Below, one piece after another: positions 2,552-60,329 of a DNA stretch of 64,000 nucleotides. The number at the start of each line of letters is the position of its first letter. Position 1 is the first letter of the stretch. The stretch covers positions 21,338,437-21,402,436 of the forward strand of contig NC_090409.1 in assembly GCF_036365525.1 (NCBI RefSeq), in the 5' to 3' direction. Source of the DNA: Heterodontus francisci. Its lineage: Eukaryota. The notes beneath the pieces were generated by a model. The model was not told where the DNA came from and did no database searches. It worked only from the letters and a program-made list of their open reading frames with translations. A program made the translations under genes and the position numbers.

Positions 2552-2559
2552 ACTTCAGA

Positions 2560-6215: not shown

Positions 6216-6864
6216 ATTCACTTGTTTCTATTTACTCCTACTCTGACCTTCCTGCCCTCGACCAGCTGAAGAGCTGCAATGAAGCTCCATGTCAGCTAGA
6301 GAAGCAGCACCTGATCTTTCGATTATGCACGTTGTAGATTTCTCGACTCAACATTGAGCTCCACAATTTCAGATTGTAATCACTGCCCCAATGTGTTTAT
6401 GTATCTTCGTGGTATTATGTTGTTCCCTCTGTTTTTGCTTTTGCATGGTTACTGTTCTTATACTGATATTCCTCCTCCCTAGATACATGTTTTGCTTCTT
6501 TCCTTTTTTTCCCATTACCACTCCCTTTTGCCTAGTACCATGAACGTTTTGTTATTTAATCAATCCTGCCTAACACTCCATTACAAACTGTCCATTTGCT
6601 TCTTTTTCCCTTCCTCGCCCTTTTACTTGCTGAAATACTATTCCAATTTTTTCTGTTATGATGTAAGATCTTCAACCTGAACCTTTAACTCTCCACAGAT
6701 GCTTCCGGACCAGCTGAATTTTTTCCAGCATTATCTCTTATTTCCAGTTTCCAGCATATGCAGTAGTTTGCTTTTGTTCACCACTATGTTCTGCTTTTCG
6801 CTCCTTAGACAATATCTTATGCACACTGCCAAACTGTCATTTGTACTTCTCTGTGCTTGCCTAC

Positions 6865-6900
6865 CTGTATCTTTAAGACTCTGGCGCAGATTCTCCAGAC
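6865..6900 (-). CDS. 36-nt micro-exon GLENLRQSLKDT
   Basis: tttgcttcatttttag|gtctggagaatctgcgccagagtcttaaagatacag|gtaggc. Confidence 0.88.
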
Positions 6901-9900
6901 CTAAAAATGAAGCAAATCGAATCTGTCTGCAATTGACTTCGGCTAATTGACGATTCGATCAACGGTTCACAAATGGTTCACAAATGTTTCCCCGCATTCT
7001 GTTTCATTTTTTGTCACAGATGTGTATATCAGAGTCGAAAGTGGAAGAAAAAAATGTATAAACAACTTCAGTATTTGTCGCGAAATCTAAATTTGTGGTC
7101 GGCTGTATAAAGAGTGGTCTGTGCAATTTCCTCTGATTTGCATCCCCTTAAATGTCCAATTTCATGCCAGCTTTTTTTGATTAGATTAGATTAGAGATAC
7201 AGCATTGAAACAGGCCCTTCGGCCCACCGAGTCTGTGCCGACCATCAACCACCCATTTATACTAATCCTACACTAATCCCATATTCCTACCAAACATCCC
7301 CATCTGTCCCTATATTTCCCTACCACCTACCTATACTAGTGACAATTTACCTACCAACCAGCAAGTCTTTTGGCTTGTGGGAGGAAACCGGAGCACCCGG
7401 AGAAAACCCACGCAGACACAGGGAGAACTTGCAAACTCCACACAGGCAGTACCCAGAATTGAATCCGGGTCCCTGGAGCTGTGAGGCTGCAATGCTAAAC
7501 ACTGCGCCACTGTGCCAGCTCTATTGGTATTATGAGATAGGTATGTTTGACAATCCCAAGATGGAAAATTAAAGTGCAATGGGAAAGCATACAGCAATTC
7601 CAACCTCCGTTAACACGAATCCACGGCCCCTAATAAGTAAATACCTATCACTGAAGGGAGGACCGATTGAGAACTGAAACCTGAACATCAGTCATATTGC
7701 AAAATAAAACACCTGGTAACTTGTAACATATTTGAGGGGTGATGACAATCGTGTTCAGCCTCTGTTATAACTTCCATTGCTTAACTAGAAGAGCTGTTTT
7801 ACAGACTGTGGGCCCACATTTAAGACATATCCTGTCCTCTCGCAATGGAAGTTGCACATGGAACTGCTTCCCCTCTGTGGTATATGTAACCTGAACTTTG
7901 AGTTCATTCCATTACCTTTATCCTTCATCTGCAGCCGTTCCTCTGTATAAATAGAGCATGGCATGAATTGATCTGTTAAACCCACTTTACATAAATAAGA
8001 GAAGGAAAGAAATAGAAAAAGAAAGAACAAAATTAAAATCCAAGAAACAAACAAAGATAGAAACAAAGAAAAGAGCAAAAGAAACCCATTTATGTAGCTG
8101 ATTTCCCAATCTCTGGTTATTTCAAAGTCGATTGATCCATTGAAGAACATTTTGGAGAGTTGCCACTTTTGTAAAGTAGGAAACGCGGCAGCCAACTTGC
8201 ACCCGGCGTGGTCCCTCAAAAAGCAATGCGATATTTGATAAGGCAGTCTTCGATTGATTTTGATTGAGAGATATATGCATACTGACCAAAACACTGGAAA
8301 GAACTCCACATCAGTATAATGCTTAGTGCAAAACATGGCATCTCAGAATGTGTGGCTCGCTTTCAGTATTTCAGTGGATTTTAAGCCTGGATTTAGAGTG
8401 CAATTGTCTTGATGGTTAATTTTGGCTCAGAGACGAGGAAGACCTACCTACGATATCAAGATAATTTGCAGCAGTGCAGCAACAAATTGATTCTAAACTT
8501 GCTAACAAACAGCTCAGCTGATCATGCCTTCGGTGAGTTAAGCTATGGAGAGCTGTCATAAATTCGAAGCATATCTACTGCATACAAGCTTATGAAGATA
8601 ATATACACAGTCTTACGAGAATGCATCTTGGTTTGTAAAAAGTTACGTCACATATATGTTTTAATTCGAATTGGGAAAGGAGGCCTCCGCATTTAGGAAC
8701 AGCTTGTTATGTGTAGCGCCTGGAAAGGTATAATGTAGCTGATTTTTCATTGATGTTCATATCATTGTAGCACGAAACAGTGCAGAGGAAACCTGTTTGG
8801 GATATCGTGGTTATGCTGGTCGTTTCAAGGTGAAATTCAATTCTTCCCGCTCCCCTGCTCCTTATCCATTGGCCTGCACTTGCTTCTCCAGTGCATCGAA
8901 TTCTCTTTAAAAAGTTACTATTGCATCTACTTCCAGCACCCATTTATGCAATGCATTCCAGATCACAATCAGTCGCTGCATAAATAAAAACTGCCCATCA
9001 TGTCACTGGTCCTTTTTGCTGATTATCTTAATTCCTTTGTTTTCAGGTTACTGACAACTTCGGCACAGCAAACAGTTTAAATTGTGTAACATGGATTTTT
9101 GTTCAGAAAAAAAAGAGCCTCAGAGTAAAATACGCTGCAGTCCATGACTCGGGTCTTCAAACCGATTATACTACCCATCGCTTTTTCGACCTTTTTTCCT
9201 GCATCTGCAGTTGGTAAACCTTGCAGACTGAGGTGCACAGAGTGGTTGTGAAAGAGTGTTTCGTAAGCAGAATGCTAAATTCAGCGGAGAGCAATTCGAG
9301 TATATAGGAAACAGAACATTCAAGTTCCTTTCCGTTTGAGGCCAACAAAGTCTGGGGCAGAAAATTAAAGCTAGACAACTGCTTGTGAAACTGGAATGCA
9401 CCACTTCTTGCCACTATTGTTAATTTTGTTCAGTGTGTTAGTTTATGATTCACAAGTAAGGCACTGAGAGGTGTTTTACAGCACATTAAGGTCACACCTT
9501 GTAGGTTAATCACCTGATTGACAACAAATGTAAGCGTGCTCAGATCAGCTCAAAGCTCTAAAATATAATTTAATTTTCCTCTCAATCCTCACCGAGATCG
9601 CTGACCTGTTTTTCGAGATTTTCGACTTCTGGAGAAAGAAAAGGAGATAACGATCAGACCTCCAAGTGAATAAACTCCAAGTTAATAAATTACACCCTTT
9701 GAACAAAAGTCTTTCGGTGCATTTCTTTAAACAAACTTATTTGTTTTCTAAGTCTTCACAAAACACAACGTTTGAATTGTATATTGCATTCGCCTCCTCT
9801 TATACAGTCATGAAAAGTCAATGCAACTGACTGCCCGTGGGAGATTATGACATTTGGCTCCTGCATTAGTGATACAAGCCCCAACAGTCTTACCATCATC

Positions 9901-12900
9901 TGAACCTGAATCCTATCATGATGACTAGAGTGATAGCACTGACTTCCTAGATAGTACCATCTGGATAACAGCACCCAAGAAACAACACACCAGTGAGATC
10001 AAGAGCTGCATGTATTTTGCAATAGCGACTAAGACAGAATTCTACCACAAATCGTCATCAAAGCACAAGGTGATGAGGTCTGATTTTCGATTCATGCTCA
10101 TCGAGATACGAAGGAAAATATAGGCTTGCATTCATACCGCTACGTTTAAGGCCTCAGGACATCCACATCCAAATGCCCTTTACAGCCATTCTTACCAAGT
10201 GCAGTTGCGCTTGCAAGTTAAAGGAACGTGCAGCAAGCTCCCACACATACAGTAATGTTCATAGTACAGTGAAAAGGGCAATATCAAGTTAACACACATG
10301 ATACAATGTGAATAATTTGCCTTACCCTCAACAAGGTGATTTTATCTTTGGCAATTAATTTAAATGGGTGTTAACGCAGTTGGAAACTCGTAATACTGCA
10401 AACTTTCCCTTCAACCATTGTCAGCCGAAATGAAAATTGGATAGGCTTTGCAGTAGGCAATTACATTGTAATCTTTAGTTATACTTGTTCTTAAATATTA
10501 ACCTCCTTCACCTTCAGTTTACTGACTCCTTGATGTTTGAAATGTCTGTAGCAGGAAGTGTATGTTGTACTTTCAATTTTAAGGCTATCCTTCTGCGCAC
10601 TTTATCAAAGCATCTCTGCAATGCTTTGCTAATGTGCACATTGTGACTCATATATGGTGGGTGGAGTTCGCTTGCAGATCAACAGTGAATGGGGGAATGG
10701 GCTCGAGGTGAAGAATAAAAGTCTTTTCTTATCGTGTTCTTATACTCACTCTCTCAATACAGATGCCATAATAATACCCTTTCCATTACCTACTTCTCTT
10801 TAAAAAAGAAAGACCATTAATTCTTGAGACAACACAAAAGAAAGTGGACGCTCTAATTCAGAATATAAACAAAATGTGCTGGAAATGCACAACAGATCAG
10901 GTAACATTATATATAGAGAAACGTAGTTAGCATTTCATATCTATGAACTCTCTTTAGAATTGGAAGTTGGACAAGTTCACAGTCAGGGTAAGGGGAGGGG
11001 AAGAATGAACAAAAAGCAAGGTCTTTGATATTGCGTAATGGAGTAAAGATTAAATAACGCCGCAGACAGAAGGAGATGACAATGAAACAAATAAAGAATC
11101 AAAACGTGTTTAGGGATTGTGGAAATGGGAAAACAGATTGTTTCTTTAGAATGCAGTCCAAAAATGGCAGAGTGATGATTTTCTGAAATTGTTCAACATA
11201 TTGTTGATCATATTTAATGGCATAGCAGGCTCGATGGGCTGAACTGCCTATTACTGCTCCTATGTTCCTATATTCCTAAAGAAAAACGCTTTTCTGGAGA
11301 GAAATGCACTCCAGTGAGGTGAAAGCTATAGAAAGTAATGTAGAAAAATTGTTGATCACTTTATGCCGCCTTTACCTTTCTCCTTTCTGCTCAGCTTTTG
11401 ATCTACATATAATTAATTGATAATGTTATTCCGATAATTGTAATTGCATAATGATTGTTGGTAATAATACTTACGCTGGAATGAACGCACTACTTTCTAA
11501 ATATATATAAAATTGATGTATTTAACCAGTCTCTGGTTCGACTCAGGGTTAAATCAAATCATTGTTTGTGTTTGTATAATCAGAAATAAGAACGATCTTT
11601 GAGGGTTAATGAAGATGCCTGTTTATCTGCTCCCACCGATCTACCAATCTAATGTCAACGTTCTCTGTAGGTGATAAGGGAGTATAACTTTAATTATGTC
11701 ACTAAAAAGATGGAATAATTGTTTATATCCGCTCCGTTGTTGAACATGAAATTGAGTGACAGAGAATTTACCACAAAGCAATAGGTCACCGTGTTCCATT
11801 CTTCATCAGGTATTTATCTAGCTTGGAGTATAATGTGAGGAAATGGGGAACTTTCCACTTTGATAGGAAGAATAGGAAAGCGAAGTATATATTATTTTTA
11901 GTGGTGAGAGATTTTATTGGTATGCAGCGTGATTTTGGTCGCCTTATACGCCAATCACCGAAAGTTACCAATTAGAACGCAAATAGTCTGTTCACCTGTA
12001 TAACGTGCAGATGGTAGAATAAGATTAAGGAAGTCTTCCTACAATTATGTAAGGCTCTGGTGAGATCACACATATATTACTGTTTTCAGCTTCGGTCACA
12101 TTACTTAAGGAGGGTATACTTGCCTCAGAGAGAGTGCAGTGAATTATCACCAAATTGATTCCTGGATTGAGAGACCTGTCCTTTGACGACAGTTGAGTAG
12201 GATGGGCCTATACTCTTAGGAGTTTAAAAGAATGTGGGTTCATCACATTTAAATGCATAAAATTCATACCTTGAGCGGGTGGATGCTAAGAGTTTGTTTC
12301 TCCTGGTTGGAGAGTCCAGAAGTGGTTGTCCTTGTCTCAGGGTAACAGGTCGCCACTTAAGACAGAGCTGAGGAATAATGATGTTTGTGACACGTTGGAT
12401 ACCACGGATTCTCAGTCGTTGTGTATATTCAACACTGAAATTAATACATTTCAGGACACTTAGGGAATCAAGGGATGTGGTATATGGCTGGAAAGCTGAG
12501 TTGAGATAGATGAGCAGCCATAATCCCATTCAATGAGGGACCAGGCTCGAGGGCTGCATCTCATTTCCAGCTCCTAATTCGTATGTCCCCATGTTTCCCT
12601 TGAAGGCATCTATTGTATTAGCCCAGGTTCTACATTCTAACACTTGTGGATCATAGAATCATTACAGTACAGATTTTTTTCTGAATTTATTATTTGATTT
12701 ATTAGTGAGTATATTAATTTTATTGCCCTTAGCATCTGTCCTTTCCCCACCTAATTTTTGCCACATCTAGCCGAGCAAATTTATTCAGTACTTTAAAGAA
12801 AGATAATGGGCACCAACTGGCCTTCCCTTTACTGGAGAAAAGAACTCATTCCTATTCAGCTTCTCCTGACAGACATCATGCGATCATCGATTGGTACCGA

Positions 12901-15900
12901 CAGTGACCGTTACAGCGTGCTAATATTCGTAAATACGGGGAAAATTGAATGTGCATAGAATTGGAGAGAGAATAAAATGCATTTTGAACAAGTTCTGCAA
13001 TGGTTCGTTCAGCCTCCTTTTGTGCAGTTGGCTTCTTCGTTCCATGGTAAATTCAAGCTTTCAGCAATATGCGAAATGATTTCACTCATCTTTCAAATTT
13101 ACATTTTGCCACTGTATGAGATTTGTTCAGGCAAAATTATTGGCATGAAAATCGATTTAGTTGGATCAGTAGTGTGGAAGACATATTCATTGTTTCAGGA
13201 GATAAAGGAATGTATTAATGAGATGAATAAATAGGCTTAGCATTCAGTGGTAATACTATCTTTTGATACTCGTGCAATAATGGGCGACATCGAATAATTC
13301 CTTTCCATTTAATTTAAGAGCCAGCATGTGTAACCTGCGAGTAAATGGACACCGGTCATTTTACACTATCAACCAATGTTAAACAACACCCTCCTTCATT
13401 TGAGTAACTTGATCGGTACCAAATAAGTCCTGTTCACCTGAATCTCGGCAACTTTCCTTCAAAGCATTACATTCTGGAACAAAATAATAGGAATAACTTA
13501 AAGATACTGTAGTAATATCCGAGTAGCCTGGATGAGCAATACAGACAACCTGGCTTCAAATCCTGGCATTTGAAATTTGAGAATTTGAATTCCATTTCGA
13601 AATTTAAAATATTTAGTATTCATAGAAGTGACCATGAAGGCACAGGGCTGCAGCAAAACCCAAATGTTTTCACGAATGTCCTTATGGTAAGGAAAGCTGT
13701 CGTTCTTAACAGTTATATGGTAGACCCTCAAAAAAGAGCTTTTGTGACTCAGGATAACTTGGCAGGGCAATAAATACTCGCCTTTCAGGCGACGCCCGAC
13801 TCCAAGTTGTTGTCTTAATAGGAGTGCGCATGTCGTTGCAAATTGACTTCCTGGTACATGCACTCGAGGCTCACCTGATCTCCATCCGTGAATTATACTT
13901 CATTGACATGAATACCTTATTTATACCTAGTCTAAATTCTTTACAATGCCTGAAGCATCAACCCCTTGCCATCGGATGGAGGGAGACCAGATGTTCACGT
14001 CAATGTGAGCATCACCAGAGGGCAAACTGGGTAACATTGAACTTGTGTGGGAAAGTAAAACAGGCAGAAATGCTTTTTGCCATCAGTTTCAGTGCATGTG
14101 CCACATTCAAGAGAAGTGAATATAGGACGCAATGTGAAATGGACGATCAGTCCAATGTCACCTGCTGTGCTTCAGTATCCATCTTGTCAAATTTCATGCA
14201 TATTGCTGGGTATTCACGCTGAAGTGTATAAAGATGATGACAATAACTCACTTCCACTAATACAATGATCAGACTAATATCAAAACCTTCTGAACGCCCC
14301 ATACAATCTAATGAACACATATAATTGCATCGAATTTGCATCTCAGGTAAGAGTGATTCAACATATGTGGTCTATGCCAGTTTTCATGATTGTCACGATC
14401 CTCTTCCCATACTGCTTACCTTACCATATGACCTTTAATTGTTTCCTCCATCATATAGTTATGCAGCTTCCCCATAAATGCATCTACGTTATTCCAGTTG
14501 AAGGAGTGAAAAATTCTACACTTCAACTCACCTCTAGGTAAAGAGGTTAAAAGTGAATTTCTTATTACATTTAGTAGGTACTGTCTGATATTCATGAGCA
14601 CTAATATTATACTCCATCACAAGTGGAATTATCTTCCCTATATCGACCCCCTCCAAGACTAATATTAAATACATCGATTAGGGCACCGATCTGGCATGAC
14701 TTTCCCAGAAAACATAGAGCAGCCTGCACAATCATACTTGGCAGTTGTACATTCTTAGTAATGGCAGCAGCCTTGTGCAAGCATTATGAAGATTCTGCAG
14801 TACACATACACTTTTTTTTTGAACAGACAGCCAACGACCTTGCTCAACAATATGCAATGAAGAATACAGTGTGCAAAGTAGAAGGCACAATGAAATGTAC
14901 TTTTTTTACCCAACGAACAGACAATTCCGCAATGACTGTGTTTACCTTTCTCGTTCTTTTCTATAGCGGCCTCTATTTGGATTGTACAGAAAAACATTAA
15001 AAAACAATGAAATCCACTGCTAGCATCAGTCAACCCTTCATGTTGCTGGCGTCCAGATAGCTATTCTCCTCCACTTTTTGTATATCCCCTACTTCCATGC
15101 TTCTAACATTGATGGTCATGCCATCAGCTACCGCTGAGAGAAGCTCTGTAATCCTTCCATGAATATGGACAAATCTCCGCATCCCGAGCTTCCTTTAAGA
15201 TTTTTTTCAACAATAAAAGTAAGACGAGAAAGATAAGTAGGCTTTTAGACTATTTAAAACCACATCCTTGTGCAAAACGTTGTTCAGATGACCGAATATC
15301 TCATGTGGTCGTACGTTCTTTATAAATGAATATTGCTATATTGCAGATAATAATACCTCAAGTTACAGGACAGCTTACAGTGAGGGGCACCATTTGCTTT
15401 AGCTTTAATGAGGTAAGATTGTTCTATAACTCTAGCTTCACAACTATATAACCCACTGCTGACCTGTATTTGTCAGATTTTCCTTCAATGCCTGGATATC
15501 TGTAATTGCAAAGCAAAACTCTCAGAACTCTCTATCGAATATAATTCCACATTTCCTTTCTCACTTATCGGGCTAGATGCAGATAGTTTTAAGATTGGGC
15601 ACTGGTGTTGAACACTGTGCATCCAGCCCAATTTGCTGTTCTGTCGATTTGGAAGGAAAATACTTGACAGTACCCATTCTACACCATCACACTAAGGTAC
15701 CAACTTCCCCACGATTTTCTTAGCAGCTTAGAGAGAGATGGGACAAAGACCGTGTACAGTACCTTTGATGACCCCAGGCCGTACTGAAGCATCTCACAAC
15801 TAATTAAATACTTGGTTATCTTTAAACTCGACTAACCCTGGCAAGCCTCCTACTTAGTACACTGCGTAAAATCTGGTCATCCAAAACATTTTTCCCCTGT

Positions 15901-39900: not shown

Positions 39901-42900
39901 GGACTGCATTTGAATGGTGAGCAGCTCAATCTCAACAGTGTAGAGCGAGCAGGAGGTAGTTCTCAGAGACCACATCAGCTTGGAGAGGGCGTGGAGGGAT
40001 ATAAGAGAGAAGATAATGATGTGGTTTCAGTGCTCGGACAAGGGAGAACCTTACAGAATGTCTGGTCTTGTGGCATATCAGAAAGGAGGGAAGTGGAAGA
40101 GATAATTGCATGGATAGTTTTAATCTTAGTGATGAGGAAGGCCATGAGCTCCTCGCACTTCTTGTTGAAGATGAGGGTTGAGGAAGGAGACCCTCCTGTT
40201 AAGAAGATCGTTTGATGTGGAAAGGAAAAACAAAAACGTGTGCTTTTTTCACATTCCAGGGCGATCCTGGAATAGCAAACACTATAGGTGAACTAGAAAA
40301 GCATCTGATCATGTATTACACAACCTACCAGATCTTGGAGTGAATGGCTAAACCAGTTGTCCAAGGTATCTATCCAAGTTTGTTGCCCTTGGACTAAGTG
40401 AGCAGTGATGTGGGCCGTACTAGTGGAATTGACAGCCGCAGGAGAGAATGATGAGTTTAATAGAAATTAGTGCATCAAATGTGGAGATGTAACATTTAAC
40501 ATTTCTGTACTTTTAAAATGTGTCAAATATAGGGCCAAGGTTTATACAGTGACATTTTAAAAGTGCAGTTGCAAGTCAATTTTGAGAGATTTTTTTCCAG
40601 ATTGTACAAACAAATAGGTCGGCTTGTGGGGGGAGGGGGGGGGGGTCGGGGGGAATGGGGATATGGGGGTTGACCTAAACAAGGAAATGAATTGATATGA
40701 TAAGAGTCGTGAGGACACGTGAGACGGCAAAGGCTGTAAAAGAAATGGTAGGAGATTTTAAATGAAGGGACAAATTAAGTTAAGGACCTCAGAAGAGCAA
40801 AAGAATGAAAGTTGAAATCACCGAGGCTGAGAAGCCACTCAGTGAACAGGCTGAAAGTATAAAGCACCGAGGATTATACCGTGAGTTTTTTTTATGTTAC
40901 GTGGGTTGGCATTAGAGAACAGGGATTTGAAAGGATAGGCATGAGACGTGGGTAAAGAGAAACAACAGGTACCAAAATGTGTAGAAGGTGCCAGTTGAGT
41001 AGGTGGACAGATTAATGTGTGATCTCATGATATCAGACACATGGTCAGGGGGCAAGGCAACTGAGGGAATTTTAAACCCCATAGGGAGACTTCATTTAGT
41101 GGGATGGTGTTAATTGCCATCCTCCTAGTTTCTGTCAAGGTTATTATTTTGATTCAATTATCCACACTAAGAGTATGGATGACAAATGCCTTCTTCAAAA
41201 TTAAATGAAATTCTACGGAGAAATGCGGTGAAGGGCAATGATTGCTGATCTGCTGGGAGAGTACACAGTTTAAGCACCGGGAAGGTTATGTTTGACGAGA
41301 ATGGACCTTGGTAAGATTACCCTACTCTTCATGCACTGAGCGGTCAGGTCATTGATTAGGATGGGGCTATTGCGTTTGCTGCTCATCTGGAAATTATTCA
41401 AGCACTGCTCGTATGTTAGCTCCAACCACCTTCGGTTCACCCATTAAACATGTGCTTGCTGCCTTCATACATTCTCAGCCCACTAATGGCATAATCCTAA
41501 ACTTTTTATTCCCGTTTTCAAATAAAGCAATCGTCTCACTCCTCTCTATTTGCATAAACTCGCCCAGTCTTACAAATTTACGAAAGTTCTGTGCTACATC
41601 TGTTTTGATTACTTGAACATCCCCGAATTTAATCACTCCAAAAACGACAACGCGTTTTGAGATGCCTTTGTCCCGAAACTCAGACATTTCCCTGAAAATC
41701 TTACCACCCTCTCTACCTCCATCTCCTCCATTAATATGCTCCTTTAAACGGTCACTTTGACCGACATCTCAGGAATATGTATGACGTTAAATGTGCCGTG
41801 TAAAGCCATGTGGTTGTTATTGCCTCACAACTGCTTATTAACCTCAGTTTCACAATTTTCAATTGAGATTGCTCCACTAGTTCTTTTGCAGGAGAGCCGT
41901 AAAAATCTACACAGTGACGAAAGGCATTCTGACGTCACCACTGAACAACATGATTCTAATTGTCAAACTTCGTGGCCTTGTTTTAGACTCAACTCTTTAG
42001 AATCAACTCTTTTGTCCATCTTAAACATCTAGAATAGACCCAGCCTTAGTCGTTATGCAAGAGAATACATGATGACACTGTGCAATCTGTGCACATAAGT
42101 TTGCCTTTTGTACCTACTATAAGTCTCATGAAACTGCACTGCACCTGACCACTGTCAATAAATCCGTCCTTTGGTACGGTACTGGGAATTGAACACACGA
42201 TGAACACAGTCTAGCCAATGATTTCTAAACATAGAGATTTCATATCCCGGTGTAATAGATGGAAACAATAATACATTACTGTTAACTAGTGTTTGTACCT
42301 ATTCACGAGCTTTACTGATTAGATGGGAAATACAATGAAACCCTGCCATGCTGACATTTATCAGGATGAATACGCTTAATGAGGTTAGATCCTGGTTGAT
42401 CTGCACCTTAACACAATTGTAATAGTATATTCGAATAGTAACGACAGGCATCATGTCCTGCTTCTGCTCCTTTGAAGATTTGTATGATGTCAGGATTAGG
42501 AAGAAGTTTTTTTAAAAATTCCTGTTTGACTGTTGTGCATAAAAGAAGAGTGGAGTCATCTAACAGCTTGTCATCAGTTATTATATGAAATTTTATTTGG
42601 CAAGACCTCCAGTTTCACATCTGATGGCTCACATCTTCTGACTTCCTCTAACCAGTTTGCAATCAAGCACTGGCCCGGGTGAATGACTTCCTCCAGAGTT
42701 CACCAACAAGAGAAAAATGACCTAATTTAAGAAGAAAGTTGACATATTTGTCAGAAAACCTTTCAAGCTGTCTCAGCCCACTCCATTTAGTAAATTCCGA
42801 CTCAGCAACATGGGTACTGAATTCATCTCGTCCATATACTGTCTCCTTCAATAGGACTGCGGTCCACAGTGCCAAATTCTGTTTATATCATGTAAGAATC

Positions 42901-45900
42901 AACCATCTTCCTTCCCTATCTCAGTAACTTCCTCCAATTGAACCTCATGCCTGCACCATCTCTCTGTTCGCTTAATCCTTCGAAGTATCCTTCCCTCGTG
43001 CACAATACGTTTCCGCACAGAAGAACATCAGTCGTCAAAACTGATCACGCCAGTTTTTATGCTCTACATAAAAATCCTCTCACTTTACTTCATTCAAATG
43101 TATCAACATGACCTGCCATGTATATATAAAGTTAACATTGCACACAATGTTGCAGCGGTAATTTGAAATAAAGTTAATTATATTCTCGGAAACAATAATG
43201 AATTATCTGTTGAAAATCCATTGCTCTGGTGGAGCCTCCATGTCCTGTCCCTTCTGTGAAACCCTTACAGTATTTTTAGCACATTCCTTTCATGGCAGGT
43301 AATGAAACTGTATTCAGCATTTAGAATCGGGTTGAATGGTATACTATGGCATTGACCTCTCTGCTGTTACATATAATTAAATAGATACTATAACAGAAAC
43401 AGGACATTCCGTCCAACTGGTCTTGCCAGCATTTATATTCCAAGCGAGTCTCTTCCTATTCCACTTCAAATCAGCCTATCAGCCACTACATTATTTGCAT
43501 CTGCTTATGTGATGAGCACGGCTGAAGAAACATTCATCTACATTTACTACAAATTGACATTTATCGATATCGACTTATTTTTCCCTTCAATATACATTTC
43601 CTTTCGACTTGCACTCAAGCAATTCAATGCAGGCACTTAAAGGAAGTGCCACCATTATGAACACAGTAATTGTTGCCGTTGTAATACTTACTGCAATTTT
43701 GCAAACGTACTTTGTATTCTAAAGCAGAAAAAGGATACTTGTTCATCACGTGATATTATAAGCGAACAAAATTACAGTAGAACATTTTCGGCAAGATTCA
43801 AAAGAAATGCTCAAAGCTCTGATAGGTTCTGAGAGAGAAAAAACAATTTCCCCTGGAAGAATTATCGATAACCAAATGACACAGATTACACTGATTGGTG
43901 GAAGAAACAGTTGGTGGACACGGACATTGTTCTTTATGCAGCGAATTGTTATGATCTGCATTGCCCTCCTGACAAATACTTTAGGGATAAAATTTGCATG
44001 GCTTTGCCGAAAGTGCAGTGGCGAATGGAACGTCTGGGGTAGCTGTTCCAAAGACCAAACACAGGATCAAAGGGCCAAACGGCTTCCTTCCGATCTATGC
44101 AGTATAAAGTGCATCTAACAAGGGTAAAATTGGACGTGGGCGGGAAATCCAGAAGAATATCTCCTGTTTCACCTTATGTGGAAGATGTGAGATTGAATTC
44201 TACTCAAAATGGAATTCAATACCGTCTGTTTTGCGATACCATGAATGTTTAATGTGATCGTTACAGCTTTCATTATCATAATTTAAAAAGAGGTACAATG
44301 CAGATTGGTCAATAAAGTAAAAAAAAACTATTCATTTATATGGGAATTTTCATGACAGCAGGACATCCCAAAATACTGAATGTCTTTTGCAACTTTGCAG
44401 GGTTGTCATACAGGAAATGCAGCAAAGAAATTTGCACAAAGCAAGTTGTAATAAGATAATAACTAAATAACATGTTTTGCTGATGTTGGTTGAGGCATAA
44501 ATATTGGTCAGAAGTTTTTTTCCCATTTTTGAAATTTTGTCATGGGATCTTTTAGTCCACGTGAGATGGCAGATAGGCCTCGGTTTTCATCACCGCTGGA
44601 TGTCGGTGCCTGCGGCAGTCTTGCAGTCCCTCCCTACTCCACTGCAGTGTTATTCTAGGCTTTGTTCTCTGGTCTCGAGGGTGAGCATTGATTGATACGT
44701 ATTTGGATCGCTGATATCAGTTTATGTGATTACATCGGTGGGTATTAATACTGCAGTCGTGTTGAATACAAACCGTAGCAAGGCAAGACTTGGAACTGAA
44801 ATGGGTGGGAAACATTGATTAAAGTAACTATTGAATCTGCTTCTGCCAGATTTCTAGCAATGCCTTCCAAATCTATAGGGCGGCACAGTGGTCCAGTGGT
44901 TAGCACCGCAGCCTCACAGCTCCAGCGACCCGGATTCAGCTCTGGGTACTGCCTGTGCGGAATTTGCAAGTTCTCCCTGTGACCACGTAAGTTTCTGGTT
45001 CCCTCCCACCGCCAAATACTTGCATGTTGATAGGTAAATTGGCCATTGCAAATTGCCCCTGGTGGAGGTAGGTGGTAGGAGAAAGGTGTGGATGTGGTAG
45101 GAAATAAGGGGTTGATGTAGGATTAGTATAAATGGGTGGTTGTTGGTCGGCACAGACTCGGTGGACCGAAGGGCCTGTTTCAGTGCTGTATCTCTAAATA
45201 AAAATAAATCATCATTGCTTAAGCAAGTTCTCAACATTTGCCCTCTCCTTCTCTTGTGAACCAACATGCAACAAATTCCTTTGGTTATAAATTGTCATTT
45301 TGGTTTCCAAAAATATTTCTGATTACCAAGGATGAATATGGCTTTACAGATAATCTTAGAGAGTAATAGTATGATCTTTGTATGGCACGTGGGCGTCGCT
45401 GGCTAGGCCAGCATTTGTTTTCCATCCCGAGTTGACCTTGATTAGGTGGTTACATGGTTTTGTGCATTGCTGAACATTTAAAAGTCAACCACATTGCTGT
45501 GGTGCTGGTGTTAGATGTAGACCAGACCAGGTAAGAAAAACACATTTCCTTCCCTGAAGGGCATTATTGACTCAGATGCTTTCTTACAACAATCTGCAAT
45601 ACTTTTATGATCAAGATTAAGCTAGCTGTTTTGTTCCTCAAATTCAAATTTCACCATCTGTCGTGGCGGGTTTCGAACCCACGTCGCAGAGAATTAACCT
45701 GTCCTCTGGATTACTAATCAAGTGACACGACTACCCTGCCACTGCTTCGCCTGTTATGAATCGGTACAAAGGAATACAATTCAGACCGTCGACCAATGAC
45801 ATCTCTTTGGTAGGGCCATTCAATAAGTCATACTCTACTGCACTTTCTTCATAGCGATGGAAATTATTGTCGGCCAGACATTCATTCAATTTGTGATTGA

Positions 45901-48900
45901 AGTTGATTTTAGTAGCCTTTTGGACAGTGAATTCCAGATCACAAACGTTTTTAGTGCAAGCTTAGAATCGCCTTATGCCTCCTCTGGTTATTTGATCAAT
46001 TACGTTAAATTACCCGACACTGGAGAAAGACTTTTTTATTTAATCTGTCAAACCCATGATAATTTTCAAAACCTCCGTAAAATCTCCTTTTCGGCTGCAA
46101 CTTTCGAAGGAGAACAACTCCAGCTTCTCCAATATCTACTTATAACCGAAATTTCTCACTCTATGTTCCATGCCAAATAATATTGGAGAGGCAAGCTGAA
46201 TATAAAGAATGCTGAGAACATCTAAATTTAGACAAATAGGGGCCAAGTGGGGTTATCATAATAAATTAATGTACAAAGAAAGGCTAACATAATACATAAA
46301 AAATAAATGGTTAGCCATTCTGTAGACAGGCCAACCAGGGGCGATGCCACATTGGATTTGGTACTGGGTAATGAACCTGGCCAGGTGTTAGATTTAGATG
46401 TCGGTGAGCACTTTGGTGATAGTGATCACAATTCGGTTAGGTTTACCTTAGCGCTGGGCAGGGACAGGTATATTCTGCAGGGCAAGAATTATAGCTGGGG
46501 GATAGGAAATTATGATGCGATTAGGCAAGATTTAGGATGCGTAGGATGGGGAAGGAAACTGCAGGGGATGGGAACAATCGAAATGTGGAGCCTATTCAAA
46601 GAGCAGCTACTGCGTGTCCTTGATAAGTATGTACCTGTCAGGCAGGGAGGAAGTTGTCGAGCGAGGGAGCCGTGGTTTACTAAAGAAGTTGAAGCGCTTG
46701 TCAAGAGGAAGAAGAAGGTTTATGTTAGGATGAGACGTGAAGGCTAAGTTAGGGTGCTTGAGAGTTACAAGCTAGCCAGGAAGGATCTAAAGGGAGAGCT
46801 AAGAAGTGCAAGGAGAGGACACGAGAAGTCATTGGCGGATAGGATCAGGGAAAACCCTAAGGCTTTCTATAGGTATATCAGGAATAAAAGAATGACTAGA
46901 GTTAGATTAGGGCCAATCAAGGATAGTAGTGGGAAGTTGTGTGTGGAATCAGAGGAGATAGGGGAAGTGTTAAATTAATATTTTGCGTCGGTATTTACAG
47001 TAGAGAAAGAAAATGTTGTCGAGGAGAATACTGAGATTCAGGCTACTAGGCTAGATGGGATTGAGGTTCACAAGGAGGAGGTGTTATCAATTTTGGAAAG
47101 TGTGAAAATAGATAAGTCCCCTTTGCCAGATGGGATTTATCCTAGGATTCTCTGGGAAGCTAGCGAGGAGATTGCAGAGCCTTTGTCCTTGATCTTTATG
47201 TCGTCATTGTCGACAGGAATAGTGCCGGAAGACTGGAGGATAGCAAATGTTGTCCCCTTGTTCAAGAAGGGGAGTAGAGACGGCCCTGGTAATTATAGAC
47301 CTGTGAGCCTTACTCATTTGTGGGTGAAATGTTGGAAAAGGTTATAAGAGACAGGATGTATAATCATCTTGAAAAGAATAAGTTCATTAGCGATAGTCAG
47401 CACGGTTTTGTGACGGGTAGGTCGTGCCTCACAAACCTTATTGAGTTTTTCGAGAAGGTGACCAAACAGGTGGATGAAGGTAAAGCAGTGGATGTGGTGT
47501 ATATGGATTTCAGTAAGGCGTTTGATAAGGGTCCCCATGGTAAGCTATTGCAGAAAACACGGAAGTATGGGGTTGAAGGTGATTTAGAGCTTTGGATCAG
47601 AAATTGGCTAGCTGAAAGAAGACAGAGGGTGGTGGTTGATAGAAAATGTTCATCCTGGAGTTTAGTTACTAGTGGTGTACCGCAAGGATCTGTTTTGGGG
47701 CCACTGCTGTTTGTCAGTTTTATAAATGACCTGTATGGGTGTAAATGGGTGTAGAAGGGTGGGTTCGTAAATTTGCGGATGACACTAAGGTCGGTGGAGT
47801 TGTGGATAGTGCCGAAGGATGTTCTAGGGTACAGAGGGACATAGATAGGCTGCAGAGCTGGGCTGAGAGATGGCAAATGGAGTTTAATGCGGAAAAGTGC
47901 GAGGTGATTCACTTTGCAAGGAATGGGCTAATGGGAAGATTCTTGGTAGTGTGGATGAACAGAGAGATCTTGGTGTCCAGGTGCATAAATCCCTGAAGGT
48001 TGCTACCCAGGTTAATGGGGCTGTTAAGAAGGCATATGGTGTGTTAGCTTTTATTAGTAGGGGGATCGAGTTTCGGAGCCACGATGTCATGCTGCAGCTG
48101 TTCAAAACTCTGGTGAGACCGCACCTGGAGTATTGCGTGCAGTTCTGGTCACCGCATTATAAGAAGGATGTGGAAGCTATGGAAAGGGTGCAGAGGAGAT
48201 GTACTAGGATGTTGCCTGGTATGGAGGGAAGGTCTTACGAGGAAAGGCTGAGGGACTTGAGGTTGTTTTCGTTGGAGAGAAGGAGGAGGAGAGGTGACTT
48301 AATAGAGACATATAAGATAATCAGAGGGTTAGATAGGGTGGATAGTGAGAGTCTTTTTCCTCGGATGGTGATGGCAAACACGAGGGGACATAGCTTTAAG
48401 TTGAGGGGTGATAGATATAGGACAGATGTCAGAGGTAGTTTCTTTACTCAGAGAGTAGTAGGGGCGTGGAACGCCCTGCCTGCAACAGTAGTAGACTCGC
48501 CAACTTTAAGGGCATTTAAGTGGTCATTGGATAGACATATGGATGAAAATGGAATAGTGCAGGTCAGATGGTTTCACAGGTCGGCTCAACATCGAGGGCC
48601 GAAGGGCCTGTACTGCGCTGTAATGTTCTAATTCTAATTCTAAAAAAAAGAAGGGCAGTTTCGATTATGTACCAACATAATATATTGTTGTGGAGGCTGA
48701 CACATGGTTGAGATAGCAACTGAGTACTTTTCATCTGTACTTATAAGAGAAGAAGATACTGCCAAAATTGCAGTCAAGGGGAAGGCAATACAGTTTTTGC
48801 AGAGGATGAAATGCATATATTAATGCTTGGATTTCCAGGGTAGAATTTCAAAGATGCAGGAAGCCAAAGACAGGAAGGTGGCAGGATCAGTTGAGAAGGC

Positions 48901-50255
48901 TGGTAAAAAGCATATGGGTTCTGTTGCTTTATTCATAGAGGGATAGAGTAAAAAGGGAAGCAAGATATCCATTCGGTGGTGAGTAATTCAACTTATGGCT
49001 CCTCATCTACGAAACACGTCAGGAACGTGATGGAATAGTCTTCACTTGTCTGGATGGGTTCAGCTCCAACAACAATCAGGAAGAACAGCACTATTCAGGG
49101 AAAAACAAGCGCTTGTTTGGCACTCCATCCATCACCATTAACACGTGTGTCACGCCAGGTCCTCTCTGCACCTTTGATGTAATTTCTAATGCTTCCCCCT
49201 TCTGCAGATTTCATCGAGCACGTGTCAACCTATCTCATCCATCGTTTCTTTGCTGACAGAGAGGATACCCCGCTGTGATAGCTAGAATTTATTCGCATTT
49301 AGTGGCTCAGTAGCAGGCCATTCTGCCCAGCAGGATTTTGCAATCCATGCCAGCCTTGTGGTATGATGTTCAGTGAGAAGTCCCCAACACCTGGCATCTA
49401 TTGTGAGTTTAATTGCAGAATGAGGGGAGGAAAACGTGCTTTTTGAGTGTGTGTGAAATGAATGAAAGTTAAAGACATTTTAAACTGGCACGTACTTACC
49501 TTTCTCTCTTAGGGTCTGATTTTGTTCTGTGATGATAGTAGCAATAATAATAATGATAATAATAATTGTAATAATAATAGTAATAATAATAATACACTTT
49601 CAAAAATTTCTTAAGATGCCATGTTTCTATCAAACCATGGAGCTAAATCGCCAGGCAGTGTCAAATGGGCCCATTTTCTTATTCCCCTATTTAGTAATGA
49701 ACACTCTCTTATTATTTCCCCAGCTGACTTCTTGCGGGCCGTGTAAGGCCAAAACCTGAGGACGGACCTTATTATTTCAATACTCTCCATCTGCTTTTTG
49801 ATGCCAATGGCGCAGCTTGGAAGATAATATGCATACGACGGGATGGAAAGTTGGCTTGGCCAGAAGCGCAGAGCGTACAGTATTGTTGTTGGCCCTGCCA
49901 AATATCCACTTTGGGAGGCGAAGTCATCAGTTAGGCAGGGTTTATCATGGATGGTCGATGCGATTTCGCCAAAGTTGTGTCACATGCAGAGGAAGGGCAT
50001 CATACTTGGGAGGCACACTGTGACACAAACGTTCATTTCTTAGTTGGGGTAGAAGATGTCTTACTAACACGAAGGGGGTAATTTCAGAACTGCAGCATGT
50101 TATACTCCACGTCTGCTATTCAGGCACATTGACTTAATTGGAAGTGATTATCGGGCCAGGTATTTAGCGTGTGCCTGATGTGAAACCGCTCATGTTGCAG
50201 TGCCATTTGTCCAAATTACCTGCTTCTTCCAATGATTCTTTCAGCTTTATCAGTT
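6865..50255 (-). CDS. Partial host gene: array of at least 16 symmetric phase-1 micro-exons encoding a ~162-aa heptad coiled coil; both gene ends not found in the window
   Basis: 16 AG-exon-GT units of 36, 27 or 18 nt, all on the minus strand, all phase 1-1 and stop-free when joined. Strict 27/36 alternation from 31586 to 6865. Hydrophobic residues fall at positions 2,5,9,12,16 of the 21-aa unit. Confidence 0.9.
7179..7516 (-). mobile_element. HE1-like SINE with (TCTAA)n tail
   Basis: Near-identical to the 51804 copy; ttagattagattag tail. Confidence 0.92.
7916..7942 (-). CDS. 27-nt micro-exon EERLQMKDK
   Basis: ctctatttatacag|aggaacggctgcagatgaaggataaag|gtaatg. Confidence 0.88.
8140..8310 (-). 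mobile_element. Deu-domain SINE 3' fragment
   Basis: gtaggaaacgcggcagccaacttgcac is the reverse complement of the conserved 3' block. Confidence 0.6.
9593..9628 (-). CDS. 36-nt micro-exon EVENLEKQVSDL
   Basis: tctccttttctttctccag|aagtcgaaaatctcgaaaaacaggtcagcgatctcg|gtgagg. Confidence 0.9.
10860..11210 (-). mobile_element. Penelope-like 3' terminal fragment
   Basis: aaaatgtgctggaaatgcacaacagatcagg...ctgaaattgttcaac, reverse-complement counterpart of 6350-6780. Confidence 0.6.
11376..11402 (-). CDS. 27-nt micro-exon DQKLSRKEK
   Basis: attaattatatgtag|atcaaaagctgagcagaaaggagaaag|gtaaag; 18/27 nt identical to the 17251 exon. Confidence 0.85.
11770..12600 (+). mobile_element. Old CR1 3' region
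   Basis: tggagtataatgtgaggaaatgg..., gctctggtgagatcaca, CR1 3'UTR-like end. Confidence 0.75.
13438..13473 (-). CDS. 36-nt micro-exon ECNALKESCRDS
   Basis: cctattattttgttccag|aatgtaatgctttgaaggaaagttgccgagattcag|gtgaac. Confidence 0.85.
13510..13750 (+). mobile_element. Decayed tRNA-SINE of a third family (same as 45375)
   Basis: gcttcaaatcc, gaatttgaattc, gtgaccatgaa, aatgtccttatggtaaggaaa. Confidence 0.5.
15960..16720 (+). mobile_element. Two old CR1 3' end fragments with a G-rich run at 16438-16480
   Basis: CR1 3' motifs tacacagcgagtgg, ttcaaaagaaagttggat, ggactcgatggacggaatagcc. Confidence 0.6.
17251..17277 (-). CDS. 27-nt micro-exon EQQLSQKEK
   Basis: ccttgttatttattag|aacaacaactgagtcagaaagagaagg|gtaagt. 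Confidence 0.9.
18225..18260 (-). CDS. 36-nt micro-exon ELDTLKESLQDI
   Basis: ctatttcctgattttctgaag|agctagacaccctgaaggagagtctgcaagacatag|gtaaga. Confidence 0.88.
18290..20000 (+). mobile_element. Fragment of a second CR1/L2-group LINE family, split by an RTE insertion
   Basis: gatttggataacatgtagacttgggttgagaggtggcaagtaacattc (DLDNI.AW..WQVTF-like); resumes after 19887 with tgtgtaccatctacaagatgcac. Confidence 0.7.
18667..19876 (-). mobile_element. RTE-clade LINE with inverted 5' segment and 11-bp TSD
   Basis: 18667-19066 minus: FYSELHHGKRLPGGQRKHY...SWESLAQ plus RTE 3' end. 19070-19876 plus: YRTSGKLFN, LQYAED, MPDTSLPKQ. TSD gcaccccatct at 18656-18666 and 19877-19887. Confidence 0.85.
20831..23706 (-). 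mobile_element. Young CR1 LINE, 5'-truncated at the start of ORF2, (ATTCTA)n tail
   Basis: Whole EN-RT region present; 3' stem-loop ggccgaagggcc; tail ttagaattagaa. Confidence 0.97.
20912..23684 (-). CDS. CR1 ORF2 (APE endonuclease + reverse transcriptase) with one frameshift in the 15-C run at 23484-23498
   Basis: LKCVYFNARSIRNK...VAISETW, GDFN, SDH, QHGF, DFSKAFD, KFADD; 856 aa open downstream of the run. Confidence 0.93.
24850..26520 (-). mobile_element. Highly decayed CR1
   Basis: RGLEYKQEEVLLQLSRALVR; EMATVMNSYVMSVFAVEE. Confidence 0.7.
26704..26730 (-). CDS. 27-nt micro-exon EMTLNQKLK
   Basis: tgtgctttcaatag|aaatgacgctcaatcagaaactgaaag|gtgagt. Confidence 0.88.
27640..29990 (-). mobile_element. 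Stack of several decayed CR1 3' halves
   Basis: Repeated CR1 3' starts (catagaattatata, tatagaacc, catggagtcatacag) each followed by RT C-terminal remnants. Confidence 0.6.
30240..30430. repeat. Degenerate (GAT)n/(GAG)n low-complexity tract
   Basis: gatgatgatg...gatgatgatgaggaggaggagaaggaagagg. Confidence 0.7.
30570..30605 (-). CDS. 36-nt micro-exon ELEKMKGEFQQL
   Basis: ccttttcttgttgcttttcacag|aattggagaaaatgaagggagaattccagcaattgg|gtgagt. Confidence 0.9.
31560..31586 (-). CDS. 27-nt micro-exon DEMSLEKLR
   Basis: tatatttttgaacag|atgaaatgagccttgagaaactaagag|gtaaat. Confidence 0.8.
31785..32145 (-). mobile_element. Deu-domain SINE
   Basis: aatgtctcatctaaaatatgtcacctccgac, gtaggaaacacagc, ctcaagtcactggag. 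Confidence 0.75.
32799..32816 (-). CDS. 18-nt micro-exon EEKVKA
   Basis: tttgtttgtttttttcatatgaacag|aagaaaaggtaaaggcag|gtaaaa; a competing internal donor aag|gtaaag is also present. Confidence 0.6.
33490..35515 (+). mobile_element. 5'-truncated CR1 with disrupted ORF2
   Basis: IKENPKAF, PLFKKGSRDKPGNYR, SGVPRGSVLGPLLF, NFADD; 3' gggccaaagggcc and gactctatga tail. Confidence 0.95.
36041..36076 (-). CDS. 36-nt micro-exon ALQNTLKKIEAL
   Basis: ttttatttgccattcag|cactgcaaaacacgctgaagaagattgaagctttag|gtgagt. Confidence 0.85.
36158..36205. repeat. Perfect 24-bp tandem duplication
   Basis: atcttatatacaaatggcttgcta x2. Confidence 0.95.
37841..37867 (-). CDS. 27-nt micro-exon KDETEEKEL
   Basis: ttttatttgtcgctgtcttacag|aagatgaaacggaggaaaaagaattag|gtaaat. 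Confidence 0.8.
   Translation of the reverse strand, partial: KMKRRKKN
38390..40440 (-). mobile_element. Decayed L2-type LINE
   Basis: Minus strand GIPQ..ILGSLLF, LHANDIQLYI (YADDTQLY-like), ELIQNS; 3' end gctatataaatac. Confidence 0.75.
41440..41800 (+). mobile_element. L2 3' fragment
   Basis: ttgaacatccccgaatttaatcactcc; ctctctacctccatctcctcc...gctccttt. Confidence 0.55.
43692..43718 (-). CDS. 27-nt micro-exon EYKVRLQNC
   Basis: cctttttctgctttag|aatacaaagtacgtttgcaaaattgca|gtaagt. Confidence 0.8.
44328..44685 (-). mobile_element. Deu-domain SINE
   Basis: catgggatcttttagtccacgtgag...ggcctcggtttt; gatgttggttgaggcataaatattgg. Confidence 0.75.
44878..45208 (+). mobile_element. HE1-like SINE
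   Basis: gggcggcacagtggtccagtggttagc...gaagggcctgtttcagtgctgtatctctaaataaa. Confidence 0.9.
45375..45745 (-). mobile_element. tRNA-derived SINE of a third family; 3' tail shared with the second LINE family
   Basis: B box gggttcgaaaccc; core ccttcagggaaggaaa...cttacctggtctgg; tail aatgctggcctagccagcgacgcccac resembles 57048-57076. Confidence 0.7.
46322..48645 (+). mobile_element. Young-subfamily CR1, 5'-truncated, several stops/frameshifts, (ATTCTA)n tail
   Basis: Closely colinear with the 20831 copy from VDRPTRGDATLDL onward. Confidence 0.97.
49500..49526 (-). CDS. 27-nt micro-exon EQNQTLREK
   Basis: (att)n...catcacag|aacaaaatcagaccctaagagagaaag|gtaagt. Confidence 0.85.
49530..49593. repeat. 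(AAT)n microsatellite abutting the 49526 splice acceptor
   Basis: gatgatagtagcaataataataatgataataataattgtaataataat... Confidence 0.9.
50220..50255 (-). CDS. 36-nt micro-exon (E)LIKLKESLEEA
   Basis: ccatttattttcag|aactgataaagctgaaagaatcattggaagaagcag|gtaatt. Confidence 0.85.
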
Positions 50256-50339
50256 CTGAAAATAAATGGTAACAATTAATTATCTTCTTGTTTCATGCTT
50301 GCTCTACTCACTCTGCACGCGGGAGTTCACATTACTCTT

Positions 50340-51120
50340 CCATGGTGGCGCGCATTGGCTATAATAGAATGCTGGATTTGGTATCTCGATGTCCAGAATA
50401 CAGGGAAGTAGAAGTCATGCTTCAGCTATACAAAGCCCTGGTTAGACCACTACTACATTGCTGTAAGCACTTGTAGGCAGAGCACCTTAAGGAGGAGACA
50501 CTGGCCTTGAGGGGAGTACAGCGTCGATTTAACAGAATACACCAAGACTCCAGAAGACCGCGATGAGAAGAGAATACACATAATAGAGTTGTACTTCTTG
50601 GAATGTAGAAGGTTAAGGACTGGTTTGATCTAGGTGTTAGGGGGAGCAGATAAGGTAGACAAAAGACAAGCGATTTACAGCAATTAGGCAGCCAAGAAGT
50701 AAAGGTCTGTAAAGCTAACCCCGACCAGGCCCAAATGCTGGACCCGGTAGTTGGGCCCGACCTGACCCGAACCCAATGCATGCCATCAGGTCCTGTCGGG
50801 TTCGGGCCGGGTAGCAGGCCTTTACATCAGTAGGGTAACTGCAAGGCTTATTCTCATGAATGGAGCTGGATATTTCAGAAGTGAAATTGGGAACACTTTC
50901 ACATGCAAAAGTTAATAAAGGTGTGAAACTATGTTCCGCAAATGTGAAAATAAAGCCAGATCTATTGTTAATTTTAAATTTGAGATTGATTTATTTTTGT
51001 AAAGCAAAATTATTTAGATAAATAGGACAAAGGCATTTATGTGAAGTTACTTTGCAGATCACCATGATCTAATTGAATGGCAGAACCGCCTTTGGTGCAA
51101 AATGGATTCATGATATTCCC
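50340..51120 (+). mobile_element. Old CR1 3' region
   Basis: EYREVEVMLQLYKALVRPLL. Confidence 0.75.
50700..50824. mobile_element. Short hAT-like MITE inside CR1
   Basis: Terminal inverted repeats taaaggtctg / caggccttta (9/10); internal cccgac and gtcggg subterminal repeats; no clear TSD. Confidence 0.55.
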
Positions 51121-51803: not shown

Positions 51804-52154
51804 TTAGATTAGATTAGATTAGAGATACAGCACTGAAACAGGCCCTTCGGCCCACCGAGTCTGTGCCGAACATCAACCACCCATTTATCCTAATCCTACA
51901 CTAATCCCATATTCCTACCAAACATCCCCACCTGTCTCTATATTTCCCTACCACCTACCTATACTAGTGACAATTTATAATGGCCAATTTACCTATCAAC
52001 CTGCAAGTCTTTTGGCTTGTGGGAGGAAACCGGAGCACCCGGAGAAAACCCACGCAGACACAGGGAGAACTTGCAAACTCCACACAGGCAGTACCCGGAA
52101 TCGAACCCGGGTCCCTGGAGCTGTGAGGCTGCGGTGCTAACCACTGCGCCGCCC
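51804..52154 (-). mobile_element. HE1-like SINE, young, (TCTAA)n tail
   Basis: Intact A and B boxes; inserted in an old CR1 endonuclease fragment just before KGGGVA. Confidence 0.93.
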
Positions 52155-60322: not shown

Positions 60323-60329
60323 TAACTGC

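Follow-up and report, generated by a model that had tools for sequence, protein, structure and literature searches.

A megabase array of micro-exons in the shark Heterodontus francisci, predicted to encode a coiled-coil rod with a terminal B30.2 domain

What kind of gene would be assembled from coding pieces of mostly 27 or 36 nucleotides (nt) scattered over tens of kilobases? The question is raised by a stretch of 64,000 nt from the 6.0 Gb genome of Heterodontus francisci (contig NC_090409.1, here C39, positions 21,338,437-21,402,436); this whole stretch is called the window below. A first-pass annotation had described on its minus strand 16 symmetric phase-1 micro-exons, joining into 486 nt with no stop and spelling a long coiled coil, and had suggested an immunoglobulin-superfamily or lectin receptor. 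With a probability of roughly 0.78 we read the array as part of one gene of at least 1.12 Mb and about 230 micro-exons, predicted to encode a rod-shaped coiled coil, at least about 2,270 residues long, with a C-terminal B30.2 (PRY-SPRY) domain.

The window was scanned for splice sites using approximate, unfitted vertebrate consensus weights. Of the 23 minus-strand AG..GT units scoring at least 6, 14 had a length divisible by nine and a final G; of the 18 plus-strand units, 0 did. The 16 best units (eight of 36, seven of 27 and one of 18 nt) add up to 495 nt, and two more 27-nt exons recognised by pattern or profile, at 14972-14946 (with a weak acceptor) and 11402-11376, complete a set of 18 exons and 549 nt. 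Both joined sets translate without a stop; the phase, strand and open frame first described thus held, while the length of 486 nt did not. In the 18-exon set hydrophobic residues recur with a period of 3.48 (power 1.97, reached in 0 of 2000 shuffles), and in the alternating 36/27 run from 18260 onward with a period of 3.50, bearing out the heptad pattern. All 18 exons lie outside repeats. Their coding share is about 1.3% of 43 kb, where about 1% had been given. The coordinates of the 43-kb array, from the first exon at 50255-50220 to the last at 6900-6865, were right, but these are not its ends, since stepwise scanning of the flanks followed it past both window edges, and its scale had been set about 25-fold too small. 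We conclude that the exon array of the window is real and far above chance, and that the window (1..64000) is an internal slice of a very large predicted gene.

All of these exons are on the minus strand and are given here in the order of transcription. The array enters with a 36-nt exon coding for a 12-residue heptad block (50220..50255; AG/GT, splice scores 2.5/4.8), and a 27-nt exon of nine residues rounds off three heptads with it (49500..49526; splice scan and pattern). Next come a 27-nt exon of a class ending in A, which by clustering groups with 12 paralogous upstream exons (43692..43718; splice scan), an acidic, linker-like 27-nt exon (37841..37867), a 36-nt exon (36041..36076; both by splice scan and profile) and the sole convincing 18-nt unit of the window (32799..32816; splice scan). 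Splice scan and profile also agree on exons of 27 nt at 31560..31586 (borderline profile score, good splice sites), of 36 nt at 30570..30605 and of 27 nt at 26704..26730. A strictly alternating run then opens with 36 nt at 18225..18260 (splice scan, profile) and 27 nt at 17251..17277 (splice scan, pattern). It goes on with 36 nt at 15464..15499 (splice scan, profile), the probable 27-nt exon at 14946..14972, which rests on the profile and restores the alternation, and 36 nt at 13438..13473 (splice scan, profile). The 27-nt exon at 11376..11402, overlooked by the plain splice scan, was recovered by pattern and profile; behind it lie 36 nt at 9593..9628 (splice scan, profile), 27 nt at 7916..7942 (splice scan, pattern) and the last 36-nt exon of the window at 6865..6900 (splice scan), from which the array continues downstream. 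A nineteenth candidate at 18580-18554 was dropped as lying inside a repeat.

On either side of the window the array fills 984 contiguous kb (C39:21.008-21.992 Mb) without ending in the scanned sequence, with exons known up to C39:21991589. Over this span the strong AG..GT units show two strand-specific length spikes: 81 of 469 on the minus strand measure 27 nt and 68 measure 36 nt, where the plus strand has 10 and 5 among 330, and 76 of the 81 and 65 of the 68 are open in phase 1. Lengths of 21 nt (6) and 24 nt (2) stay at background level among the 469. The resulting catalogue holds 218 exons (138 of 27 nt, 75 of 36 nt, two of 18 nt and one each of 15, 39 and 42 nt), being 172 score-selected units less two dropped plus 48 added by hand; transposon-derived 27-nt units were excluded, and 36-nt units at window-relative 1340, which has a stop, and -3098 were dropped. 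Its 2,186 codons contain 0 stops in the predicted frame as against 202 and 138 in the other two; among the 172 score-selected units one had a stop in that frame. AG/GT is intact at all 218 exons, which was itself a selection criterion. Introns reach 41 kb. The scans of the 984 kb found only micro-exons, with no long coiled-coil exon among them; with two further exons found by prediction and ten adjoining the terminal exon described below, the total is about 230.

Duplicated units within the array provided evidence on coding. Across six copies of a 5-exon unit, pN/pS, the ratio of nonsynonymous to synonymous differences, was 0.22 when read in the predicted frame, while the other two frames gave 1.07 and 2.18; the pairwise values are not independent, and a count of variable columns agrees with them (of 48, 6 vary at the first codon position, 10 at the second and 20 at the third). 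Of a seventh unit, two exons were predicted and then located, both with AG/GT. When sets of single exons were compared, identity within the exon exceeded that of the flanks in nine of nine sets, and the corresponding rate ratio, dN/dS, was 0.10-0.26 in five of the nine, two pairs of which overlap. This pattern indicates frame-specific purifying selection on the duplicated exons. A few transposon-derived 27-nt units do pass the scan on both strands, as they would if the whole array were chance splice-like signals or transposon fragments, yet the strand-specific length spikes, the frame-specific selection and the position of the 18 window exons outside repeats make the odds of that explanation negligible.

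The two main exon classes obey a simple code. Exons of 36 nt have the consensus L-x-x-L-K-x-x-L, with positions 2, 5 and 9 hydrophobic in 93-96%, and in exons of 27 nt position 4 is hydrophobic in 88%. A 36+27 pair codes for 21 residues, or three heptads, with its core at positions 2, 5 and 9 of the first exon and 16 of the pair, in the second. Neighbouring 36-nt exons occur once in 217 junctions, whereas 5,000 shuffles gave a mean of 25.5 and a minimum of 14, and the 36/27 alternation holds over the whole array. Additional 27-nt exons, some rich in Ser, Gly or Asp, break the heptad register. The repeat units of 48 and 69 residues correspond to 5- and 7-exon units, by whose tandem duplication the predicted rod has been enlarged; as each is one residue short of a multiple of the heptad, we read the extra 9-residue exons as putative hinges. 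The first-pass annotation had held that any exon could be skipped without a frameshift, and for the reading frame this is so. For the coil it is not: since neither 12 nor 9 residues make whole heptads, skipping a single exon would retain the frame but lose the register, which only a 36+27 pair preserves. A beta-layer reading of the 9-residue exons, after the accessible part of PMC4786415, concerns trimeric coils, of which we saw no sign here, and was kept as a lead only. A 21-residue unit profile run with no bias correction scored on three of four homologues (elephant shark, skate and Narcine) and on none of four unrelated coiled coils.

The array most likely ends in a B30.2 domain encoded by a single exon 465 kb downstream of the window. 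A search of the genome for SPRY domains, in which the best 150 of 254 candidates were scored, matched C39 at 20.873 Mb on the minus strand. The exon (C39:20873656-20873136) has 172 codons, opens at a phase-1 acceptor and closes with a stop, beyond which lie poly(A) signals; ten phase-1 exons of 24-36 nt stand before it, one of them a clear array member. Right upstream, at C39:20.884-20.899 Mb, stand two duplicated pairs of 24-nt phase-1 exons, a length that forms no class in the main array. The domain matches Pfam SPRY with an E value of 3e-15 and has no Pfam PRY match. Its model (mean predicted confidence, pLDDT, 80.7) retrieved TRIM7 first and butyrophilin B30.2 domains among the top Foldseek matches, and the best sequence matches in the PDB were to BTN3A1 B30.2 (E 1.8e-25 to alpaca-type BTN3; 6e-37 by profile). 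A downstream B30.2 exon had been foreseen in the first-pass annotation as one of two possibilities, and it lies beyond the window; the other, a lectin domain, is not supported, the terminal exon found being a B30.2. No lectin-like exon was noticed in the exon scans either, which did not include a lectin profile and left 100 kb downstream uncovered. The window exons would presumably be joined to this B30.2 exon.

Several points weigh against placing all of these exons in one gene. Their splicing is predicted from genomic sequence alone. Absence of stops is partly built in: the 48 hand-added exons among the 218 are stop-free by choice, and junction codons start with G or A and hence cannot be stops. 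The link between the array and the B30.2 exon spans 100 kb outside the scanned sequence (C39:20.908-21.008 Mb), which contains two pattern matches. The 5' end, with the start codon and any anchor, lies beyond the upper edge of the scan and must be sought below the B30.2 exon of the next gene at 22.16 Mb unless the two loci are joined. The other four exon sets, which are small, gave dN/dS values of 0.45, 0.80, 1.02 and 1.26. A hidden Markov model of the 21-residue unit matched no homologue at a significant score, and relatives are mostly represented in public databases by short models (175-460 amino acids, aa), only one gene being modelled long. The dimer, hinge and ligand steps proposed further below are inference. 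Finally, the 5' part of the array could be a separate duplicate, because two of its exons, C39:21873147 and 21874052, nearly match those at 22197654 and 22198510, which are similarly spaced and lie 37 kb upstream of the B30.2 exon of the next gene; neighbouring genes may have duplicated or converted each other's exons here, or both pairs may belong to a single larger locus. These near matches, the introns of up to 41 kb and the four sets lacking clear purifying selection would also be expected from several tandem genes or partly dead duplicates, in which no single transcript would run from the window exons to the B30.2 exon. Against this, the 984 contiguous kb contain no stop and no further B30.2, B30.2 remnant or terminal exon; splice sites are intact in 218 of 218 exons, albeit by selection, and the alternation rule runs along the whole array. 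We consider such a patchwork improbable and keep to one gene.

Since small symmetric coiled-coil exons followed by a one-exon B30.2 are the layout of a butyrophilin tail, the gene may encode a receptor of the butyrophilin or BG type, with exons for a leader, Ig domains and a transmembrane segment in the 166 kb upstream and the rod as a giant cytoplasmic tail. This would suit the best PDB matches to BTN3A1, the sequon depletion described below, and the chicken BG genes, for which the available text of PMC4046983 gives 13-36 one-heptad exons (21 or 24 nt) after IgV and transmembrane exons. The IgV/IgC exons that the first-pass annotation expected did not appear: tblastn over 1,024 kb, a scope leaving out 166 kb upstream (C39:21,992,437-22,158,000) and the 100 kb downstream gap, gave no match below E 0.3 to fish butyrophilin Ig domains and none to TRIM RING, B-box or coiled-coil domains, with a B30.2 control at E 2e-27. 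None of the homologue models scanned has an Ig domain, and the B30.2 domains of the family form a long branch of their own outside 19 Ig-bearing rows of the tree presented below. A receptor of this kind is possible, if doubtful.

The same searches bear on a giant TRIM protein with a RING/B-box exon further upstream. TRIM7 came first in Foldseek, and one pair of family members sits on contig C29, where most of the SPRY and RING matches of this genome lie. Near the C39 arrays, however, there was no RING match among the best 150 of 623 candidates scored, RING and B-box were absent from all six family models scanned, and fish TRIM coils are built otherwise, those of finTRIMs from 96- and 234-nt exons in the accessible part of PMC2657112. 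We hold a giant TRIM to be quite unlikely.

As regards location, no hydrophobic 19-residue window was found in the 2,186-residue rod (maximum 0.67), and nothing in the exon scans, which stop short of the 5' end, passed convincingly for a leader or a hydrophobic exon. No such window was seen either in the 1,697-aa elephant-shark model, whose maximum (1.59) falls at its first residues and whose only Pfam match is SPRY. N-glycosylation sequons show no enrichment in the rod (16 vs 11.7 +/- 3.2) and are depleted in the elephant-shark protein (2 vs 9.6 +/- 3.0), therefore the cytoplasm is weakly favoured, and a cytoplasmic location is our best guess. These data would fit a soluble rod lacking a membrane anchor as well as Ig and RING domains, which would serve as a scaffold or filament with B30.2 heads. 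As the 5' end lies beyond the scan and the public models may be 5'-truncated, we advance it tentatively. The opposite arrangement, a stalk outside the cell that is secreted or belongs to a type II membrane protein and displays B30.2 extracellularly, in the lectin-receptor geometry suggested by the first-pass annotation, has a parallel in the bowfin protein MBN3300211.1 (Amia calva), in which a transmembrane segment and coiled-coil repeats are followed by a C-terminal B30.2 in the place of the lectin, and two homologue models have short hydrophobic starts. The sequon counts argue against such a stalk, and pyrimidine tracts read through yield starts of this kind: six of nine minus-strand 'leader' candidates share their donor with an internal micro-exon already known. 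The signal-peptide reading of the two homologue N-termini was set aside as a probable artefact of this sort, not proven either way, and we give the stalk little credence.

The gene appears to be one of a family. Six B30.2 exons of the same subfamily head 27 genome matches, at C39 20.87 (-), 22.16 (-), 25.64 (+) and 28.02 (+) Mb and at C29 24.24 (+) and 27.32 (+) Mb. Micro-exon pattern matches lie upstream of five of the six (70 against 14 in the control, 39 against 0, 18 against 0), whereas one further pattern search was uninformative (272 matches against 1,218 in the control). Four more arrays each end at a subfamily B30.2: C39 22.16-22.66 Mb (-), 25.02-25.65 Mb (+) and 27.30-28.02 Mb (+), and C29 24.65-27.32 Mb (+). 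The last would measure about 2.7 Mb if its pattern matches form one gene. C29:24242874 (+) is a subfamily B30.2 with no pattern match upstream, and C29:29765352 (-) a lone micro-exon-like match with no subfamily B30.2 near. C29 between 2.7 and 50 Mb also holds the majority of the scored SPRY and TRIM-type RING matches of the genome, in a large TRIM-B30.2 cluster. A tree of 60 domains sets the 11 family rows (three from this genome and eight homologues picked by score and inspection) across a 100/100 branch from the 30 rows that bear RING and the 19 that bear Ig. It has no root and names no sister group; within it the family B30.2 is placed as a separate long-branch group, not nested among the Ig-bearing rows.

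All named relatives are cartilaginous fish (catshark, skate, Narcine, basking shark and elephant shark), joined by two Logan-derived fragments, so the shark origin supposed in the first-pass annotation is reasonable. The coding, symmetric phase-1 micro-exon coiled-coil array first proposed is borne out for a cartilaginous fish. Models of the same subfamily are XP_042192744.1, XP_007898089.1, XP_055510696.1, XP_038668997.1, XP_038672308.1, XP_069775385.1, XP_042191567.1 and XP_078422387.1. They share the B30.2 subfamily and rods of 9- and 12-residue blocks, but bear automatic names only (TRIM39-like, A33-like, myosin-like; XP_042192744.1, of 1,697 aa, is called 'nuclear-pore anchor-like' and XP_007898089.1 'myosin-2 heavy chain-like'), most are short 3' fragments, and none describes an exon array. 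Isoform models differ by internal blocks of 9 residues in catshark, 6 and 9 in Narcine and 7 and 9 in elephant shark, and two models of the 1,697-aa protein are 11 pure indels apart, nine of them of 9 or 12 residues. Such in-frame blocks, taken from gene models and not from reads, fit exon skipping. Searches among longer proteins with the B30.2 exon and alignment, which covered at most 2,000-2,255 residues and so stayed below the predicted length, returned only generic TRIM or multi-B30.2 proteins (best 16 of 529 and best 11 of 7,990), and the elephant-shark protein retrieved only its own two models (2 of 7,999). Its N-terminal 432 residues had no match in this genome under a stricter-than-usual search, and residues 1-420 no usable Atlas match, neither of which is proof of absence. 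A low-confidence fold of the Narcine homologue, built from isoforms only (mean pLDDT 49), showed three long helices but left the B30.2 unresolved and was not used as support.

Among known systems the chicken BG genes come closest in building a long coiled coil from many tiny exons, with a number that varies between paralogues and alternative splicing in the tail (available text of PMC4046983). Their exons are one-heptad units of 21 or 24 nt and that text describes no B30.2, whereas the shark array uses 27 and 36 nt in pairs over more than 1.1 Mb, has a B30.2 end and yielded no Ig exon; 24-nt exons occur here only as the four beside the B30.2 exon. Because one heptad per exon does not hold and no Ig has appeared so far, we do not file the gene as a BG or butyrophilin member. 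Butyrophilins (BTN/BTNL) likewise place heptad exons before a single-exon B30.2, with heptad numbers that vary across jawed vertebrates in the accessible portion of PMC12841164. They differ in having few heptads where the shark rod would have about 300, and in their Ig and transmembrane parts, which were not found here, as a PRY match was not. TRIM-B30.2 proteins, finTRIMs included, share the coiled coil, the one-exon B30.2 and a similar fold; their RING/B-box was not found in the shark array, and their coils come from few exons of 96-234 nt, as far as the seen part of PMC2657112 goes. Enterophilin-1, which is linked to SNX1, is a much shorter mammalian protein with a long leucine zipper as an extended heptad rod, a C-terminal B30.2 and no RING. 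The literature searched, mainly titles and abstract openings with few subscription papers and no supplements, contained no description of the gene family.

If the gene is read as one, the window exons and the B30.2 exon would be joined in one transcript, and the chains would form parallel coiled coils, hinged at the extra 9-residue exons, which would keep their B30.2 heads together at the tip of a rod about 300 nm long. By analogy with butyrophilins and TRIMs these heads would bind a partner with added avidity. Rod length would change between paralogues by exon duplication and between transcripts probably by in-frame skipping, which would shift the hinges too: skipping a 36+27 pair would cut three heptads, whereas skipping a single exon would add or remove a hinge. 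Spliced as predicted, a gene of more than 1.1 Mb with at least about 230 coding exons, together with at least four similar loci, would be unannotated or present as mislabelled fragments. The micro-exon coiled-coil principle of BG and butyrophilin genes would be extended tenfold, with frame and heptad register decoupled. A distinct B30.2 lineage in shark genomes would bear on the shuffling of this domain among TRIM, butyrophilin and other proteins, and the exon list supplies direct junction predictions for RNA. That these loci constitute an undescribed cartilaginous-fish family of megabase genes, with hundreds of 27/36-nt exons, a two-exon splicing code and no Ig, membrane or RING part, is a bolder proposition, and as a whole we rate it as rather doubtful. 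The family would be at least 420 million years old, the age of the split between sharks and chimaeras, and its genes would, to our knowledge, rank among the most exon-rich of vertebrates. Cells could then make B30.2-tipped rods of chosen length and flexibility, and neighbouring arrays might even share a promoter and use their B30.2 exons as alternative ends.

The remaining features of the window are largely mobile DNA. A long interspersed nuclear element (LINE)-type retrotransposon open reading frame of 886 aa, with endonuclease and reverse transcriptase, lies in an intron at 20912..23572 on the minus strand, outside the coding chain, and further reverse transcriptase fragments occur at 47299, 58903 and 59334; the long open reading frames of the window that match Pfam (4 of 17 tested) are retrotransposon pieces. 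An 88-nt tandem repeat of 2.4 copies at 63044-63257, probably transposon-derived, carries a strong minus-strand splice donor and two 54-nt pseudo-exons. A common LINE contains, on both strands, a 27-nt phase-1 AG..GT unit that mimics the length of an array exon (for example at window-relative 133787 and 74595), and its sense-strand copies could be exonised.

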